From: a virus
Taxonomy: Duplodnaviria; Caudoviricetes
Reading direction: 5' to 3' (one strand)
DNA length: 32,297 nt
IMG/VR virus record: IMGVR_UViG_3300029825_000758
Span: 1-32,297 of that record
Position 1 is the first letter of the stretch. Each line of letters opens with the position of its first letter. Shown piece after piece: positions 1 through 7,748 of the stretch. A program made the translations under genes and the position numbers. The notes beneath the pieces were generated by a model. That model had not been told where the DNA came from and did no database searches. It worked only from the letters and a program-made list of their open reading frames with translations.

Positions 1-936
1 ATGAATGTTTTAACGAATATAACGAGTTTATTATCGACGGAAAAGGAGTCTTTAACTAATGGACTATATCAATTAAAATTGCTTGCCTCAAGAATTAGAA
101 ATAAAGAATTATTGAGTTGGATAAATAAAGAGTTAAACGGATATGAGGACGATGACAATCTTCCTGAATATCGTATAGCTCCCGCATTGCTACAAGGAAC
201 GTATTCTAACGGTTTCTATTCAATACGGGATCAGATAATATCTACCCTTCATTTTCCAGAAGAATTAAAAGAGAATCTCAACAAAATAAGAATAAAACAG
301 GGTATATCAATTATTGAGGATGCTGCAAAAAATAAAGAAGACACTATCGCTTTTGTAGTTCCAAGCGAAATTAGTGCATTTATTATGCAAATTATTAGAG
401 ACCATAACCCTACCTATAAGTTATATTCCCTGTTTGATACTCGTCAAGTCACAAGCCATACGGTCTATAAGAATATTCTTATAAAGGTTCGGAATCATGC
501 TTTGGATTTGGCTCTAAATTTAGAAACAGAAATGGGATATGAAGTTGAAATAGAAGAGATAATAAAAAATAGAAACGAAGCAAACCAAATAATTCACAAT
601 TACCTTACACAGAATATCACAAATATCGGAGATGGAAATCTAATAAATACTGGAGACAGTAATACAATTTATCAAAAGCCCACTATACAGAAAGGAAATT
701 TCGATCAGTTAAGAGACGAATTAAATCAATTAGGTTTAGAAAAATCTGATATTGAAGAATTATACCCAATAATAAATAGCGAAAACACAGAAAAGCAGCC
801 TAAACAACTTAACGAAAAAACTCAAAGTTGGATAAAGAAAATGTCAAACAAACTTATAAAAAATGGTCGAAAGATAACAGTAGAACTGGGCATTTCTATT
901 TTAACGGAACTAATTAAATCATATTTGGGATTCTAA
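1..936 (+). CDS. AbiTii-domain protein (putative abortive infection/defence)
   Basis: N-terminus LTNGLYQLKLLASRIRNKELLSWINKELNGYEDDDNLPEYR matches the AbiTii pattern; GDGNLINTGDSN low-complexity linker; AT-rich; the start is at the window edge. Confidence 0.75.
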   Translation: MNVLTNITSLLSTEKESLTNGLYQLKLLASRIRNKELLSWINKELNGYEDDDNLPEYRIAPALLQGTYSNGFYSIRDQIISTLHFPEELKENLNKIRIKQGISIIEDAAKNKEDTIAFVVPSEISAFIMQIIRDHNPTYKLYSLFDTRQVTSHTVYKNILIKVRNHALDLALNLETEMGYEVEIEEIIKNRNEANQIIHNYLTQNITNIGDGNLINTGDSNTIYQKPTIQKGNFDQLRDELNQLGLEKSDIEELYPIINSENTEKQPKQLNEKTQSWIKKMSNKLIKNGRKITVELGISILTELIKSYLGF

Positions 937-1020: not shown

Positions 1021-1845
1021 TTAAACGTGCATTTCAAATAAATTCAAAGCTTGTTGACTGATCGGCGTGGCATAATTGCAGGTGATCCATTCTTCCTGTT
1101 TACGCCTGTTTTCCTTGCAGGCAGATATCTGTCGCTCTACCGAATGAATAACCCAACCGTTTTGCTCGGCATATAACTGAATATTGTCATTCGGGTACAT
1201 CGTAAGCATGAATTTGCCCTGAAGGGTGACGCATAGTTGTAATAATCTCTCGAGATCCGCATCATCGAACATGCCGGTGTAATGGCCCATGTCGGAACCG
1301 ACATACGGCGGATCAATGAAATGAAACGTCTCGGGAGTATCATACCGGGTAATAACACGGAAAGCGTCATCGTTCTCAATCGTGGCTATCTCGAGCCGCT
1401 TACGTAACTCGACCGTGAAGGCTTCCTTGGCGAAATCGACTTTCCGAGCCTGACGGCCTTCGGACTTATCGAAGCCGAACGAGTTGCTGAACTGCCCGGC
1501 AAAGCCCAATTTACTCAATACAAATACTGACCAGGCACGCTGAATGTTGGTAAAGTCATCGGGATGGTTGTATATGAACCAGGCACTTTCGTGCTGCGTT
1601 CGACTGTGCAGCGTCCGGTTAATCTCCCGTTTCAGTTCTTCATAATTACAGACAATCGTCCGGTAAAAGTTGATGAGTTCGCCGTTCAGGTCATTGATCA
1701 CATCCATCTGCGATGGCTGCTTTTCAAAGAAAACAGCCGCGCCGCCGGCAAACGATTCACAGTAGATCGTATGCGCCGGGATCAGCGGCATGATGTGCTT
1801 CAGCATGTTTTGTTTGCCGCCATAATATGTAATTGGAGTTTTCAT
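1021..1845 (-). CDS. D12-class N6-adenine DNA methyltransferase (Dam-like)
   Basis: YYGGK, ESFAGGAAV (SAM-binding motif I), INDLN, DPPY catalytic motif. Confidence 0.95.
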   Translation of the reverse strand: MKTPITYYGGKQNMLKHIMPLIPAHTIYCESFAGGAAVFFEKQPSQMDVINDLNGELINFYRTIVCNYEELKREINRTLHSRTQHESAWFIYNHPDDFTNIQRAWSVFVLSKLGFAGQFSNSFGFDKSEGRQARKVDFAKEAFTVELRKRLEIATIENDDAFRVITRYDTPETFHFIDPPYVGSDMGHYTGMFDDADLERLLQLCVTLQGKFMLTMYPNDNIQLYAEQNGWVIHSVERQISACKENRRKQEEWITCNYATPISQQALNLFEMHV

Positions 1846-1867
1846 ACTGTAATTTTTAAAAGTGTAG

Positions 1868-1895
1868 TTTGTTTCGTTTATTTATTGTATTTTTG
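1868..1895 (+). promoter_or_regulatory. Bacteroidota sigma70-type promoter pointing away from the methyltransferase
   Basis: TTTG (1868-1871), 16-nt spacer, TATTTTTG (1888-1895) = TAnnTTTG; the spacer is shorter than the typical consensus. Confidence 0.5.
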
Positions 1896-1899
1896 TTTC

Positions 1900-2030
1900 T
1901 CTCACGTCATAATAAAATAGGTGCACACACACCATAAAGGCATAAGCCTCTGTCTTGGTGTGTGTGCACCTTTATCGTTTCAACCGGTGACGTGAGAAAT
2001 TAGCGGTTGGCGAAGGCGGGGGCTTTTTTA
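1900..2030 (+). ncRNA. Putative structured small RNA, antisense to the methyltransferase leader
   Basis: Perfect 16-bp stem 1919-1934/1956-1971; 10-bp stem 1900-1909/1988-1997; 6-bp stem 1981-1986/2004-2009; 13-bp pairing 1944-1956/2013-2025 with three G-U pairs; U-run 2024-2029; upstream promoter. Confidence 0.6.
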
Positions 2031-2041
2031 CGCCTGCCCCC

Positions 2042-3685
2042 TCAAACGGGTGATAAACCTTCACATAAGATTGGAAATGAAAAATAAAAATATCCAGATA
2101 AAGCATCTGTGTCTACGTGCAATCCTACAGGCTCATAGGCTGGTGGCTGGGAATAACCAAATACTCGCACCCATTTTTCTTTATTGTCGTTGGACATAAA
2201 CAGAGGTATATACATCCCCTCTATAATTGAAATTGAGACGTATGTTCCGTCAAAACCCGCTGGAATATATATCCAGGCCGACGCTGAATATTTCTTAAAT
2301 CTATCTGCTATTACATCTGACAAAATTGAGAACCTTCTGACATAATTATCATTCACTATTTCTATTTTTCGAGCACTTTGTTCAGTTGTATAGAGACCCG
2401 GCTGATGAATATCAGTCTCAACAATAGACATGGTATTCATATTTATTGTAACATTGTCATACCATGGCCCTGATATTTTATTATTAAATTTTCCGATTTT
2501 CAAAAGATCATAATCGCCCATTATTTTTGAGACTTCCCCTCCAGGCGAGAAATTTATTTCATTGCCAAGTCCACAGTCTTGTATAGGGTAATCAGAATAA
2601 CGAACCGATCCCGTAATTTGATAGTCTCTAAAGCTACCCCTATAATCAATCATATTATATTTTGAAGTAGCTTTAAGAAGAATTAATTTTGCCGTTGTAT
2701 TGGTATCTCCTATCTCTACCCTGTTTCCTTCCCCTTCTATAATCATCATGTAATCTTGTGGCTGATCAGCATAATTCCAGTGCCAGTCACAATTAATGAA
2801 TTTATTTTTTGAATCAAGTACAAACCACGTCTTTTTAAAATCAGCATGTAATAAATTGAACCTCTCAAATCGACAATTCTGAAAAGTATTATTATTTCCT
2901 ACATATTGGGTATTACTTGCAGGTTCAATATCTATATTTATAAAAAGGTTTCTTTCTGAGCCGACGCCTCTTAAATCAAGAGAGGAATTCCTAATAACGC
3001 CATTATAAAAAGTATTACCATTTGAGCCTCCAACAGTTTTTACCCCCCGATAATTTGATTGAGAAAAATAATTTATAAAGCTATTGAGATATGACTCTTC
3101 TAAAATCAAGGCATCTAAGAAATTTTCTATATATACATCATAAAATAAAGAAGAGTGCATATGACTGCACAATACGCCTATCCCTTTCATTGTATCATTT
3201 GGAAACGAAACGTCATTAACTATATTTATTATTCCTAATTGAGAAATATCAAATTTGGAAATTGATAAATCAGAAATGATGCTTGTGTACTTAAGAGCAG
3301 CATTATTATGATTTATTCTTAAAATTGAATTTTTTGACCCGTCACCCTGTATTTGGATACCGTCTAATTCTATAGATAATGTATCTGACAATACATAGTT
3401 GCCAGTCGGGATGTATAATTTACCAGTGCCCATATTTTTGAGAAAGGCAATGGCTTTTTTAAATGCAATCGTATCATCATTGCTATTATTCCCTATTGCA
3501 CCAAACCATTTTACATTAAGACTCGAAGAATAAGCCCTTCTATAATACAGGCCCCGCTTTTTTCGATAAATAACGCCATCGCATTTTTCATCGTTCATTT
3601 CAGTCCCATCATGCCATGATTGGGTTTGTTCATAGTTGACGTTTTCTTTTGTGTGACTGTCTAAGAGTTTAATAATTTGTGCCAT
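2042..3685 (-). CDS. Tailspike/receptor-binding protein with pectate-lyase-3-like beta-helix (putative depolymerase)
   Basis: LNVKWFGAIGNNSNDDTIAFKKAI...LYIPTGNYVLS...IQGDG motif, Asn-rich beta-helix repeats, last tail gene; start reassigned to ATG 3685 (MAQIIK), just after the upstream stop. Confidence 0.85.
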   Translation of the reverse strand: MAQIIKLLDSHTKENVNYEQTQSWHDGTEMNDEKCDGVIYRKKRGLYYRRAYSSSLNVKWFGAIGNNSNDDTIAFKKAIAFLKNMGTGKLYIPTGNYVLSDTLSIELDGIQIQGDGSKNSILRINHNNAALKYTSIISDLSISKFDISQLGIINIVNDVSFPNDTMKGIGVLCSHMHSSLFYDVYIENFLDALILEESYLNSFINYFSQSNYRGVKTVGGSNGNTFYNGVIRNSSLDLRGVGSERNLFINIDIEPASNTQYVGNNNTFQNCRFERFNLLHADFKKTWFVLDSKNKFINCDWHWNYADQPQDYMMIIEGEGNRVEIGDTNTTAKLILLKATSKYNMIDYRGSFRDYQITGSVRYSDYPIQDCGLGNEINFSPGGEVSKIMGDYDLLKIGKFNNKISGPWYDNVTINMNTMSIVETDIHQPGLYTTEQSARKIEIVNDNYVRRFSILSDVIADRFKKYSASAWIYIPAGFDGTYVSISIIEGMYIPLFMSNDNKEKWVRVFGYSQPPAYEPVGLHVDTDALSGYFYFSFPILCEGLSPV

Positions 3686-3689
3686 ATTT

Positions 3690-4292
3690 CTAAATGTCAA
3701 AATAGTTATCGGTAAAATCCATGGAAGTAATCGAATCGAGTTGCCCCATATAGGTCCAGCCGGATCCAGTCCATGCGTATATCTTGCCATTATCCAGATC
3801 GCCGGTATCTGCCGGGTTGGATATCGCGGCCAGTTCGCCAATTTGCAGCGGCTCCCCGGTACTTTCGTTCACAGGTGAATCATCGGCCTGCATATCGGCA
3901 ACGGAGGCGTAAAAACAGGCTATTTTCAACGAAGAAAGGTTCTCCTTTAACCATATCAGGCTGTCGTTGTACCGGAACACCAAATCCCATCCAGGTTCGA
4001 GATATCGGTATACGCCGTTATTGGCACTCACCGGATCGCTCGTAACGGATACCGTCTGTCCATGTTTCAACGGCTTGCCGTCGGTACCGACCGGAGCCTT
4101 ATCGGCTTCCATATCCGCTTTCGTGGCATAACTGCCGAGTATGGCCATCGAGGCGGCATTATAGTCCACGCCCTTTGTTTTGCCAAGCATGTCCTTCATC
4201 AGGTCGAATGTTTCTTCCGGAGAGATGGACATACGCCCCGTTCGCGATTTCAATTCTTCTATTCTTTCTTCCAATTCTGTATAAGTTGCCAT
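3690..4292 (-). CDS. Tail fibre/adaptor protein with an internally duplicated domain
   Basis: Position between baseplate and tailspike; two copies of Y-x-[ST]-x-ADM-x-AD-x2-PV...G-x-PL-x2-G...NG...GW. Confidence 0.6.
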   Translation of the reverse strand: MATYTELEERIEELKSRTGRMSISPEETFDLMKDMLGKTKGVDYNAASMAILGSYATKADMEADKAPVGTDGKPLKHGQTVSVTSDPVSANNGVYRYLEPGWDLVFRYNDSLIWLKENLSSLKIACFYASVADMQADDSPVNESTGEPLQIGELAAISNPADTGDLDNGKIYAWTGSGWTYMGQLDSITSMDFTDNYFDI

Positions 4293-4298
4293 AATGTT

Positions 4299-4559
4299 TT
4301 AATAATACGGTTCGTTGGTTTGTACTTCACTAATATTCAGTCCGAATTCCTGTAATTCTACGTATGCAATGAAAGCAGACAGACGGGATTGATATAGGCT
4401 CACTGCCATCATCGAGAATGTTTCCGCATCAATTGCCGGATAATCCGTTCCATTATACGAGAATGCCTGCATTCCGTAATAAGTGCGCGGGTACCCTTCC
4501 GCCATGTCGCCGGAGAGCGTTTTTGTAACTTTTAATGTCAAACTGCGTTTCTTTGCCAT
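4299..4559 (-). CDS. Hypothetical tail-region protein
   Basis: Tightly packed co-oriented ORF in the baseplate/fibre cluster, A-rich start context. Confidence 0.7.
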   Translation of the reverse strand: MAKKRSLTLKVTKTLSGDMAEGYPRTYYGMQAFSYNGTDYPAIDAETFSMMAVSLYQSRLSAFIAYVELQEFGLNISEVQTNEPYY

Positions 4560-4563
4560 ATCG

Positions 4564-5334
4564 TTAATACTTTAAATCATAAAAATGATGTTCATCTACC
4601 TCAGGAGAAAACGTCACGTCCTGAATCCTTATCACGAGTGAATTGTTATTGTAATATTTCTCGTTAATATTCTTAATCAGCCAATTTTCGCCGGAAGCAA
4701 GAACAAGTGTCTCTTCTATAGGGATTGTAATTGTAGTAAAACTATTAAAAACTTTTAATGAAACTGTAAATTCCAAGTCACTTGTTACAGGCTCCGATGC
4801 CTCAATATTTATCGCCCATCCGCGCGTAAGCTCCGGAAATTGTCCGTATGCCATATTATTCCAAGTCAAACTGAGATTTAACTCTATTCCACGCGAGTCG
4901 ATGTATTCAGTCCATTCTGCTGAATACTCTTCTATTAGATGCTCATCGGTATGACTAAGCCAAGTAACCGAGAATGCCGCATCGCCCAGCTTAAACAAGT
5001 ACGACTTGCCGGCAAGTTTATGCTTATCGATAAACTCGCGTATGGCATTCAGGTCGGTACTTCGGTCGATGGAAATAAGGAAGTCATACGGCTTGCCGTC
5101 TAACTCGGTTAGTTCTGCCACACAGTCGAAGGTGCGTTCAATGGCGTGGATCAGGGAGATCACCTGCGGGGATACGCTTGCCTCGTAACGTGATTTCATC
5201 CGCCACAGATGGAACTTGACGAATAGCTGCTGCAAGGGTTTCGCAACCAATACGCGCAGGAAGGCGAGTATACGGTCTTTGCGCAGAAAGGTCGGCAAAA
5301 GTTGCTCTATCAGTTTGTAAAAATCTATTCTCAT
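4564..5334 (-). CDS. Baseplate wedge protein (gpI/gp48-like position)
   Basis: Follows the baseplate J-like gene with a 4-nt overlap; IDFYKLIEQLLPTFLR N-terminus and ...HKLAGKSY motif typical of this position. Confidence 0.65.
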   Translation of the reverse strand: MRIDFYKLIEQLLPTFLRKDRILAFLRVLVAKPLQQLFVKFHLWRMKSRYEASVSPQVISLIHAIERTFDCVAELTELDGKPYDFLISIDRSTDLNAIREFIDKHKLAGKSYLFKLGDAAFSVTWLSHTDEHLIEEYSAEWTEYIDSRGIELNLSLTWNNMAYGQFPELTRGWAINIEASEPVTSDLEFTVSLKVFNSFTTITIPIEETLVLASGENWLIKNINEKYYNNNSLVIRIQDVTFSPEVDEHHFYDLKY

Positions 5335-6161
5335 ACCGTGTAAGTTATTATTGTATGATCGATGTCAAAGTCGAATGACCCGCCGGGTGATTCGATGTTC
5401 TGCGAGGTGACCGCCTGCCCGGCGATCCGGACTTCGTTCAGGATCACGTCCGACACGCCATCCGCCTGCTGGATGGCATCTGTTAGCTTCGTCCGGTTAA
5501 ACACGCCCCCATAGATGATATTGTCCAGATAATTGGATATCGCCTCTTCCACCGGCTTGCCGCCTCCGGACAAGCGGTTCCCGTCCATATCGAGCACCAT
5601 TGCATTTCGGACTACCTGGAGGGTAAATTCGAGCGATGTCGGAGCCTGGGAGATGATCTCGAAGTGCGTACCGGCCGCGCCGATTTCGGTGATGTATGCC
5701 CGGAAGGCTTCCAGTTCCGACGCCGATAATGGTTGCCTGTCGTCTTTGGAAACATAGATGCGCAGTTTCGTAACGCCTTCAACCTCTAACTGTCTAACCG
5801 CAGCAAACCGGATAATTTGTGATTCTTCATCCACTTCGGGATATTCAAACCCGTATGTGAGGGGATTAAACTTGACGAAATGGCCCAATTGAAAGGCCAT
5901 CGAACGGGTGTGGTACCAGGGAATGGAGCACACGGCATTCTTCGTAATAGCCGCATCAATATCGGACTGATGCCGGTTCATAAGCGATTCAAGCGTGAAG
6001 ATCGCGACGGCAACGATATACGTCAATATTGCCTCGATGCTCACTTTCGAGAATTGCTCATCGAAGGTTTTCGATCTATCAAGTCCATACATCTGCTGCA
6101 ACGTTGAATTCGCCACAAAATCGGCGCGGATTGCTTGTACTATTTCGTTAAGAGTCCTCAT
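5331..6161 (-). CDS. Baseplate J-like wedge protein
   Basis: C-terminal AISNYLDNIIYGGVFNRTKLTDAIQQADGVSDV typical of baseplate J; synteny. Confidence 0.75.
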   Translation of the reverse strand: MRTLNEIVQAIRADFVANSTLQQMYGLDRSKTFDEQFSKVSIEAILTYIVAVAIFTLESLMNRHQSDIDAAITKNAVCSIPWYHTRSMAFQLGHFVKFNPLTYGFEYPEVDEESQIIRFAAVRQLEVEGVTKLRIYVSKDDRQPLSASELEAFRAYITEIGAAGTHFEIISQAPTSLEFTLQVVRNAMVLDMDGNRLSGGGKPVEEAISNYLDNIIYGGVFNRTKLTDAIQQADGVSDVILNEVRIAGQAVTSQNIESPGGSFDFDIDHTIITYTV

Positions 6162-6430
6162 GCGAACGTGTTGTTAAAAATGTCCTCGAAAATCTGACCT
6201 TTGTCCGTGATGTTCGTCGCCGGTTTAATGGCGTTTCGTTCGTAATAACCGGCTATGGATTTGTTTACCGTGGCCGATGCTTTTATCGTATTGAGCACAT
6301 CGATATCGTCCGTCACAGAAATATCATTCCCGGCGGCGATATCAATGGCCGCCTCGGTGCTTCCAGCCGTCTGCACGGCAATGTCGAATACCGACTGTCC
6401 TTCTAAAGCCTGAATGTCCTTTTTAGCCAT
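6158..6430 (-). CDS. LysM-like/tail X baseplate protein
   Basis: GQSVFDIAVQTAGS...IAAGNDISVTD LysM-like pattern; start reassigned to MAKKDIQ at 6430. Confidence 0.7.
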   Translation of the reverse strand: MAKKDIQALEGQSVFDIAVQTAGSTEAAIDIAAGNDISVTDDIDVLNTIKASATVNKSIAGYYERNAIKPATNITDKGQIFEDIFNNTFA

Positions 6431-6924
6431 ATCCTGATTATTAGTGTCAACGCGGCTCCGGCAAGGATAGCAACGATGTACGTCCATACCGGCGGGCGCG
6501 TGGTAGTTGTTATTTTCTCCGAGAGCGAAGCATCCAGCTTCGTCCGAAGCTGCGAAGTAACGAGTGTCAGGCGATCAATTTTGTCCTGTTGTTCGCTGAT
6601 GATACGCTCATTCTGTTCATTGATGACTGCGATATCATTCAGCGTTTCGGTCGTGCGTTCGCGAGTCTTATGTTGCCGGCCGGTCGAAGAATCCGGAGCG
6701 GAATATTGCGTATCGGTCTGGCGGGTAACGCTTTTATCGGACACGTTTGTCCTTGCATCTTTCATGATGTTGTCAATTCGCTTTTGCGATCCGGACTCCT
6801 TTACCGTTACATCGACATTCGAGACCTGATCCGTTTTGAACGCCTGTCGCTTATCCGTTTTTATCGTTCCGCAAGCTGTCAGCAGGAACACCCAAACGAG
6901 TAGCAGTATCTTCTTTTGCTTCAT
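6403..6924 (-). CDS. Putative unimolecular spanin (lipoprotein with C-terminal TM helix)
   Basis: Signal peptide with lipobox LTAC; C-terminal hydrophobic WTYIVAILAGAALTLII followed by a basic tail; located in the lysis cassette. Confidence 0.7.
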   Translation of the reverse strand: MKQKKILLLVWVFLLTACGTIKTDKRQAFKTDQVSNVDVTVKESGSQKRIDNIMKDARTNVSDKSVTRQTDTQYSAPDSSTGRQHKTRERTTETLNDIAVINEQNERIISEQQDKIDRLTLVTSQLRTKLDASLSEKITTTTRPPVWTYIVAILAGAALTLIIRIWLKRTFRL

Positions 6925-7279
6925 GTTGAATCTCCGTTTTAATTTGTTCTACAATAGCCTCCATGTTCTCGGGGGTGATCTTATCGAGCAGTTTCATGAT
7001 CTTCGTATTGATACGATTCAGCCGGTTGACTTCCTTTCGTAGCTTTTCCAACTCAACCAATACCAAGTCATATTTCACGCTCATATCTGTTGCAAGATCA
7101 CGCCAGATCTTTATTGCACTGTCCACATTGTCAATCTCGGTTGTTTTAGCTTCCGCGCGGGCTTTTTGTGCATCCGCCTCGGCTTTTGTTTTGGTTGCCC
7201 TGAGGGTTACAACCGTAACGATAAGACTGCCTCCCAAGCCAACATTTAGGACAATGGACAATATTTCAAACCAATTCAT
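6851..7279 (-). CDS. Putative holin (single N-terminal TM plus coiled coil)
   Basis: Hydrophobic N-terminus ILSIVLNVGLGGSLIVTVVTL; lies between endolysin and spanin. Confidence 0.6.
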   Translation of the reverse strand: MNWFEILSIVLNVGLGGSLIVTVVTLRATKTKAEADAQKARAEAKTTEIDNVDSAIKIWRDLATDMSVKYDLVLVELEKLRKEVNRLNRINTKIMKLLDKITPENMEAIVEQIKTEIQHEAKEDTATRLGVPADSLRNDKNG

Positions 7280-7284
7280 AACCG

Positions 7285-7725
7285 TTATTTTGAAAAGTAT
7301 ACATCACTCTCGGCCTTCCGGCGACGGACTAATCCGGGCAAGACCGTGAGCACACCGTTTACACGCGCTTTATTCCATCTTTCGAACTCGCCGGCTATCG
7401 ACGGATCATTCGTATTTACCCGGACTTTCTTCAGTAAGGTTGAACGGGTAAAATTGCCCGATCCCACGTTGAAGACGAAACTTACCAGGGCATCGAATTG
7501 ATTTTGCGACAATGGCAAGCTGAGCGCATTAATAACCTTTTCGGAGGCGGCAAGATCTTCCCGCAAAAATTGCTCTCCCTGTCGCTCCGAAATCGTGTCG
7601 CCCGGCTTCACGCCTTTGGTATGCCCGTAGCCGATCGTCGGGATGCCCGCCGGGCACAAATAGGCTTTCGGCCGAAAGCCTTCAAATTCTTTTATCAGGG
7701 CAATGCCCCGGGTTGATGTTTTCAT
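7285..7725 (-). CDS. Endolysin, GH24 phage lysozyme
   Basis: IKEFEGFRPKAYLCPAGIPTIGYGHT, QFDALVSFVFNVG, GLVRRRKAE; Cys at the usual catalytic Asp position (E-x8-C-x5-T). Confidence 0.95.
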   Translation of the reverse strand: MKTSTRGIALIKEFEGFRPKAYLCPAGIPTIGYGHTKGVKPGDTISERQGEQFLREDLAASEKVINALSLPLSQNQFDALVSFVFNVGSGNFTRSTLLKKVRVNTNDPSIAGEFERWNKARVNGVLTVLPGLVRRRKAESDVYFSK

Positions 7726-7748
7726 AAATCAATTCCTTTCACTTTTTG

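Follow-up and report, generated by a model that had tools for sequence, protein, structure and literature searches.

What occupies the gap between the tail spike gene and the DNA methylase gene of this Mu-like prophage, and does it act on the gene that lies behind it? The window (the whole stretch of 32,297 nucleotides analysed here) comprised most of a Mu-like transposable prophage, with transposase, Gam, Mu portal, MuF and tail genes recognised by domain and phrog matches. A gap of 196 bp (1846-2041) separated a tail spike gene from the gene of a D12 adenine methylase, both of them on the minus strand (Table 1). The closest named relative of this methylase was that of Proteiniphilum (80% identity), and we therefore infer that the host was a Bacteroidales bacterium. 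A second, different Mu-like prophage was located in the same genome (G000:C1, about 1176000-1198200); its head and tail proteins were distant from those of the window (22-39% identity), and window positions 1072-7726 were shared at 99.7% with an identical element. This common block (lysis-baseplate-tail spike-RNA-methylase) points to a recent module exchange between the two resident prophages. Hankyphage-like prophages are common in gut Bacteroidota, and literature searches returned nothing on the control of their Mom, Dam-like and ThyA-like genes, a matter for which the family described here offers a testable answer. The family would also be relevant to the question of gene regulation by small RNAs in a phylum that has no Shine-Dalgarno signals.

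The element folded far better than shuffled sequences on both strands (z = -5.6 on the plus and -7.0 on the minus strand), and its longest perfect stem reached 16 bp versus at most 12 bp in 200 dinucleotide shuffles. An earlier reading of the same letters (the original prediction) had proposed a small RNA running against the methylase leader, in which this stem (P2) is nested in a 10-bp stem (P1), a 6-bp hairpin (P3) holds the 3' arm of P1 in its loop, and the loop of P2 forms 13 bp, with three G-U pairs, with a stretch just ahead of a U-run (P4). The four helices were recovered at the places given for them (Table 1), as were the U-run after the 3' arm of P4 (2024-2029) and the TAnnTTTG box just upstream on the plus strand; the simultaneous formation of 16 plus 13 bp did not stand, base 1956 being common to P2 and P4, which leaves 15 + 13 or 16 + 12. 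On the plus strand the arms followed the order P1a, P2a, P4a, P2b, P3a, P1b, P3b, P4b and U-run, with two interleaved pseudoknots in which the P3 loop takes up the 5' end and the P2 loop the 3' end. Three features had been overlooked: a hairpin within the P2 loop that is complete only on the minus strand (P6), a U-rich tail behind the long stem on that same strand (read from 1918 to 1910) and a hairpin over the G-run (P5). Short ORFs starting with ATG appeared in 36/100 and 38/100 homologues on the two strands, and the reading as a small peptide was dropped as no conserved frame was evident in the homologue alignment.

Table 1. Features of the element and its flanking genes, in window coordinates (-, mRNA strand; energies in kcal/mol).
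Feature	Positions	Strand	Basis
TAnnTTTG, -7 promoter box of the Bacteroidota primary sigma factor, pointing against the methylase and 42 nt away from its ATG	1888-1895	+	box conservation, published consensus
Possible -33 TTTG, 16 nt ahead of the -7 box; TTTG not conserved in the family	1868-1871	+	position counts
Small RNA of about 130 nt (predicted), its ends placed by means of the promoter box and the U-run	1899-2029	+	covariance model R1
P1 5' arm, partner 1988-1997 in the P3 loop	1900-1909	+	covariation
U-rich tail behind the P2+P6 hairpin, terminator-like	1910-1918	-	80/100 homologues
P2 5' arm, partner 1956-1971; same stability on both strands	1919-1934	.	double changes at 12/13 pairs
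P6 hairpin in the P2 loop (1936-1941/1946-1951); G-U-complete only on the mRNA strand, extending P2	1936-1951	-	
P4 5' arm within the P2 loop, partner 2013-2025	1944-1956	+	-18.2 on + vs. -7.6 on -
P2 3' arm	1956-1971	.	helix search
P3 hairpin (1981-1986/2004-2009), loop = P1 3' arm 1988-1997	1981-2009	+	covariation
P4 3' arm (G-run) and U-run, predicted RNA 3' end	2013-2029	+	
P5, G-run hairpin (2018-2023/2036-2041), adjoins the tail spike stop codon	2018-2041	.	
D12-class adenine DNA methylase, gene behind the element on the mRNA strand	1021-1845	-	PF02086 (E 9e-27), phrog_56
Tail spike/depolymerase gene, precedes the element on the mRNA strand	2042-3841	-	PF12708, phrog_2234

Homologous loci were fetched by alignment of the methylase (80 viral and 80 genome loci); a single-protein search of the viral contigs had given no matches, and the alignment search succeeded. 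By means of a DNA profile, the element was found antisense and at most 75 nt from the methylase start codon in 67/80 viral loci, in agreement with the antisense placement first proposed, and in 32 of those 77 genome loci whose flanks were long enough; as 53 of the same sequences had served to build the profile, the counts depend on them. With a pattern restricted to the 3' part, 120 further viral loci were obtained, and about 670 such stretches were estimated in the collection. The covariance model R1, which contains 10 pairs because the automatic consensus fold retrieved only P4, matched the window at 1888-2031 with 68.4 bits (the window itself being in the training set). It also matched 17/151 genomes in a Bacteroidaceae-centred sample, 14/150 other Bacteroidales genomes (13/150 after removal of one false positive) and 2/150 genomes in a sample of the phylum, one of them outside the order. 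L313, a plain terminator, was removed from the order-level count. Statistics were calculated on 100 of 105 representatives, L131, L136, L137, L139 and L154 being left out as they had no anchor, and 29 non-redundant whole-genome matches of the model were used as a hold-out set (4 of 33 were dropped as redundant). The distance from box to G-run was 118-145 nt across the family (10th-90th percentile), which supports, as a prediction, the RNA length of about 130 nt put forward originally. At least five U in 8 nt were present at the 3' end in 99/100 homologues, a count partly built into the anchor, and in 29/29 hold-outs.

Covariation was analyzed on a sequence-only alignment of 53 sequences, whose kinship means that counts against shuffles are not probabilities. 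Across all four helices 35 of 38 pairs presented double changes, a figure reached by 0/500 shuffles, and paired cells amounted to 86%, as compared to 69% in shuffles and 40-44% with slid partners. P4 was paired in 97% of cells with double changes at 9/9 pairs, and P2 displayed them at 12/13. When the windows were set by anchors and not by pairing (n = 99), cognate arms exceeded swapped arms in P1 (31 vs. 17), P2 (29 vs. 15), P3 (17.5 vs. 12.5) and P4 (23.4 vs. 19.9). The sequence of P2 was free to vary and P4 retained its C-run and G-run. P1 reached a median of 3 bp into the P3 arm, so that P1 and P3 partly compete. A conserved, covarying structure at homologous methylase loci, which the original prediction had named as its own check, was therefore found. 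The Rfam comparison that it had proposed was also run, and neither the window nor 20 homologue loci gave an Rfam 15 match at the gathering score. Ten weak matches at E <= 10 lay far below threshold; the D12-methyl and C4-type motifs, which we take to be among the Rfam families, were not among them.

The two strands differed in the helices that they favour. Helices were chosen in the 100 representatives by a score in which G-U and A-C count the same; P4 then contained, on the plus strand, 116 G-U vs. 7 A-C positions and P3 50 vs. 7, with 89 vs. 33 in P1 and 72 vs. 49 in P2. P4 was more stable on the plus (antisense) strand in 93/100 homologues and P3 in 82/100; among the hold-outs, P4 was favoured on the antisense strand in 19 and on the mRNA strand in one, with 9 ties. 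This G-U asymmetry, along with the conserved TAnnTTTG box on the same strand, supports the plus strand as that of the pseudoknot, as was initially claimed. The contrary was observed for P6, which is formed by the C-run with the purine-rich linker that precedes P4a: on the plus strand it contained 100 A-C and 4 G-U positions, the A-C positions becoming G-U on the mRNA strand, where P6 was more stable in 87/100 homologues and in 27 hold-outs vs. 2 for the plus strand. On the mRNA strand P6 reached -7.3 kcal/mol, as compared to -4.0 for shuffled linkers and -6.1 (sd 0.13) for swapped partners; this advantage was clearer on the mRNA strand, which base composition also favours for P6. P2 and P6 together form one long hairpin on that strand, followed by at least five U in 8 bases in 80/100 homologues, in contrast with 8/100 ten bases further on and 40/100 upstream of the box. 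A hairpin directly before a U-run, as in intrinsic terminators, is accordingly predicted there, and this selected, terminator-like fold of the mRNA strand was absent from the original prediction. Judged from these alignments, each strand has a preferred fold of its own, P4 of the pseudoknot being favoured on the plus strand and its rival hairpin P6 on the mRNA strand, and the element is a real, widespread family of predicted structured RNA whose two-strand design is unusual and for which Rfam has no model.

TAnnTTTG occurred at 130-168 nt in 57 of the 60 loci found by the 3' pattern alone, as the initial proposal of a promoter anticipated, and in 0/60 of each of two sets of control windows. 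TAnnTTTG corresponds to the Bacteroides -7 promoter consensus (PMC7366714); a sigma-70 promoter scan was set aside as addressing the wrong promoter type. On the opposite strand, an ORF began 5-60 nt beyond the promoter in 53/57 loci, the distance from box to next start codon being mostly 15-25 nt in the family, and an ORF after the RNA on the RNA's own strand was found in 0/57.

A role specific to the methylase, as originally suggested, did not hold. In 116 viral loci found by pattern, which were not dereplicated, the commonest next gene in gut phages encoded an 80-aa Mor-like HTH protein (87/116); this protein displayed weak HTH/Mor similarity and was usually followed by ThyA-like and methylase genes. 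Of the 13 order-level loci, 7 had a D12 methylase as next gene (mostly recognised by N-terminal sequence), and one each had a ThyA-like gene, the HTH protein gene and a Mom gene; of the remaining loci one had lost the box, one stood among host genes and one was at a contig edge. A modification gene lay within about 1.2 kb downstream in 10/13 of them. In 19 Bacteroidaceae loci a modification gene followed in 15 and nothing clear in 1; in the other 3 a small gene and an unrelated glycine-rich, non-modification protein followed, which counts against the gate preferred below. In L334, L335 and L336 the element stood before a small, partly HTH-like gene and a glycine-rich protein of 290-360 aa with no modification gene in view, and these loci may belong to another group of phages that employs the same RNA. 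True Mom homologues (PF25680) were located behind the element in L214 and L306, which agrees with the proposed equivalence to the position of the Mu mom locus. The upstream gene varied as well (tail spike, DUF4376, lysis genes, or MuF in mid-prophage in L317), and the element travels with its downstream genes rather than with the upstream one. The variety of downstream genes indicated that the element is linked to the beginning of a downstream sub-operon, usually one of DNA modification, and not to this methylase alone.

From sequence, then, covariation in four helices, conservation of the promoter box, a constant antisense orientation and a split of G-U pairs between the strands were established. 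The explanation that we prefer, tentatively and at somewhat under an even chance, is that the element is a two-strand cis gate on the gene behind it. Late read-through from the upstream gene would meet the long P2+P6 hairpin and its U-run and mostly stop, the mRNA strand carrying a leaky terminator. At the TAnnTTTG box, whose position overlaps the start region of the next gene, host polymerase would interfere with the remaining transcription. The antisense RNA would end at its own U-run, with P4 (P2 loop and G-run) acting as terminator helix, and termination made in this way would keep it out of the upstream late gene. P1 and P4 would tie both ends into loops and stabilise the antisense RNA, which could also pair with the leader. 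The net effect would be a low expression of the Dam-like, Mom, ThyA-like or HTH gene in the lysogen, and the gate would do the job of C/Com control in Mu. The motive for gating modification genes would be that of mom by analogy: expression of mom does harm and is held under tight control, and in other Mu-like phages methylases take the place of mom (PMC3299994). The covariation, promoter box, orientation and strand split described above speak for this gate, as do the modification genes that mostly follow the element.

Several observations argue against such a gate. Related methylases were found without the element in 11/80 viral and 42/77 genome loci (L167 being counted as a carrier). A double pseudoknot is more than interference by itself requires, and an RNA whose two loops are closed would make a poor antisense probe. 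In hankyphage, whose copy (PV107405.1, 40550-40693) sits between a gene annotated as Avd and hp44, per-gene counts (S6 data file, PMC12135933; 12 samples) were equivocal. From Avd to hp44, that is, across the element, they dropped 2.7-7.7-fold in 9/12 samples, with flat counts from RT to Avd, which speaks for the gate, and by no more than 1.1-1.4-fold in 3, which speaks against it; the short hp44 gene may bias these counts. They fit a leaky terminator and show no switch. The drop persisted after induction (2.7-6.1-fold), and it was exceeded by the drop from ThyA to the methylase (6-16-fold in 12/12 samples), two results at variance with a gate, the second of which suggests that the hankyphage methylase has further control. 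The 95-bp gap between ThyA and the methylase in hankyphage (L292:5670-5764; PV107405.1) may hold a second control element. The hankyphage copy was present in 10 RNA runs; the three examined consisted of contigs without strand or level, and a single raw-read run over the copy gave 2 partial reads. A 185-nt contig from run X2 corresponded to a diverged copy extending 96 nt past the predicted 3' end, and is uninformative on RNA ends.

P2 and P4 were both at least 10 bp long in 79/100 homologues, wobble and mismatch positions included, and reached 15 + 13 in the window. Two interleaved helices of at least 10 bp each are the published mark of a knotted-RNA candidate (PMC4829277), and by predicted helix length the element would belong among such candidates; a first RNA trefoil has since reportedly been observed (PMC11218946). 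A bolder version of the gate, in which the element is a new class of phage small RNA whose G-U wobbles encode two folds, whose P4 brings about its own termination, whose ends thread through the hairpin loops into a knot or slipknot and which replaces the Com/C control of modification genes in Bacteroidota phages, is to our mind unlikely.

A covarying antiterminator for P2 was not found, cognate pairing of the P2 arms with the upstream mRNA equalling swapped pairing. The main weakness of the gate is thus that no finding accounts for its opening or for the need of the antisense RNA for two pseudoknots, which leaves other readings to be weighed. The plus-strand RNA might act independently and in trans by binding a protein, be it a product of the cassette, the Mor-like HTH protein or one from the host, with the mRNA hairpin as a mere insulator. 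Four helices with both ends locked exceed the structure that interference needs, the element is retained before unrelated genes, and one copy stands in a non-phage host context (L310/L318), all of which would suit such an RNA. The tight spacing to the next start codon does not, nor does the scarcity of conserved bases beyond promoter and P4; moreover, a search of the prophage gave no target of more than 13 nt, matches in prophage and genome were not beyond chance, and the 80-aa HTH protein had no homologue in G000. Overall, we consider a trans-acting RNA rather unlikely.

An mRNA switch is a weaker proposal. In it, a ribosome stopping at the end of the upstream gene would open P5, P4 would form on the mRNA and block the terminator, and the antisense RNA would set the balance, as in the Inc/repZ control of IncI plasmids. 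P5, which masks the other arm of P4 near the upstream stop codon, began 0-20 nt after that codon in 67/88 loci, and from -3 to 12 nt from it in 42/88; compactness of the genomes was uncontrolled in these counts and may itself account for the nearness. P5 also beat shuffles on the mRNA strand, where P4 still averaged -17.9 kcal/mol. Against this, the wobble pairs favour P4 on the other strand by 116 to 7, the mRNA-strand P4 was weaker than -10 in 13/100 homologues (-7.6 in the window), and P5 hardly covaried (17.0 vs. 15.9) and presented no strand bias in the hold-outs. We regard a ribosome-coupled switch as improbable.

Still less credit is given to a simple bidirectional terminator (P2) with an antisense promoter, in which the other helices would be by-products of folding and no stable RNA of importance would be made. 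P2 was equally stable on both strands, with A/U flanks on its two sides in 80/100 and 60/100 homologues, and the minimal variants L312 and L310 have no P3, as such a terminator would lead one to expect; the covariation of P1, P3 and P4, both on the sequence-only alignment and in the fixed-window swaps, and the concerted change of P4, P5 and P6 in L320, outside the order, make it very unlikely. A DNA structure or protein-binding site (cruciform, operator or phage-end signal), suggested by the perfect inverted repeats and the usual place near the right end of Mu-like prophages, is barely credible in view of the G-U asymmetry, which is a signature of RNA, the free variation of the stem sequences and the mid-prophage copy after MuF in L317.

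Among known systems, the cis gate that we favour would work most like RnaG-icsA, at the Mu com-mom locus, and the element lacks a defining feature of each. RnaG of Shigella is a cis-encoded antisense RNA that acts on icsA from a convergent promoter, by interference and by termination of the sense transcript in its leader (PMC2879508). The element likewise has a convergent opposite-strand promoter, predicted to read into the sense leader, a predicted antisense RNA and a terminator-like fold in that leader. In contrast, RnaG pairing induces the terminator, whereas the terminator-like hairpin of the element is the default fold, with no alternative found, and its antisense RNA is predicted to be doubly pseudoknotted. 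An antiterminator fold for the antisense RNA to disrupt, as in an RnaG-type attenuator, was looked for and not found. With Mu com-mom the element shares the position in a Mu-like phage and the class of the controlled gene (Mom, PF25680, or D12 methylases follow it), and it differs in being a predicted RNA structure with an antisense promoter. A pattern search for a Com-like zinc-finger ORF (CxxC-CxxC, 30-121 aa, ATG start) found none in the window, beyond which the prophage extends.

In the Inc RNA-repZ system of IncI and IncL/M plasmids, an activating pseudoknot forms on the mRNA and the antisense Inc RNA is a simple hairpin. The pseudoknot helices of that system are of 18 + 10 (PMC4829277). 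The element resembles it in a long stem with long-range loop pairing, a predicted antisense RNA encoded opposite the mRNA and a stop codon close by, and is unlike it in that its pseudoknot is favoured on the antisense strand; the stability of P4 (more stable antisense in 93/100; Table 1) does not agree with an activating pseudoknot on the mRNA strand. ToxI of type III toxin-antitoxin systems is a pseudoknotted RNA of repeated units, with a terminator, before a potentially harmful gene. The element is also predicted to be pseudoknotted and terminator-bearing, ahead of a potentially harmful gene, and is unlike ToxI in being single-copy, about 130 nt long and antisense to a gene of several unrelated kinds; a type III system was rejected on account of the single unit and of the 0/57 loci with an ORF behind it on the RNA strand. 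A ribozyme or riboswitch core was discarded as well, invariant columns being confined to the promoter box (11 columns at >=90%) with no Rfam match. We class the element as a putative leader RNA of the cis-antisense type with a predicted function.

Part of the family may already be listed among anonymous candidates, as compared by table description and not by sequence. HMP2_1881 and HMP2_1560 (PMC8040213) are described from Bacteroidales near Mu genes and D12 methylases, the former also near thyA, and DNAVirus_549, 909, 2851, 3104 and 3131 (PMC10690425) at most 25 bp upstream of D12 methylases. The words pseudoknot, methylase and methyltransferase are absent from the main text of PMC8040213, no matching motif appears in those of PMC5737381 and PMC11109978, and a term search of the hankyphage paper gave no mention of the element. 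No description of it was found in the full-text literature, the coverage of which leaves out most subscription journals. The feature that is new here is the preference of its two strands for different folds. The predicted structure is unusual for an RNA, with two interleaved pseudoknots, a non-nested predicted terminator helix and a different selected fold on each strand, and it would provide a short, free-ended RNA of the length published for a physical knot.

Some copies departed from the common form. L312:1501-1625 and L029/L105 were short forms that kept the promoter box, P2 and the G-run, with P3 absent. In L310:1501-1644 (also L318; G224) the box and P1 were intact and P4 was perfect, P2 had decayed and there was no P3; this copy stood among host genes, with 12 kb free of phage homologues, and was possibly captured by the host. 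In L320:1501-1638, outside the order and before a ThyA-like gene, P4, P5 and P6 had all changed together to a different sequence. At the prophage end of the window, a gene with an AbiTii domain (PF18864, E 1e-32; 1-936, plus strand) faced the methylase, with a hairpin at 959-993 between the two; other genes occupied this place in the second prophage. Many gut-phage copies (L172, L179, L187, L192, L201 and similar ones) carried, just past the U-run and immediately behind the upstream stop codon, a small hairpin with a UUCG-type loop when read on the mRNA strand, which overlapped P5.
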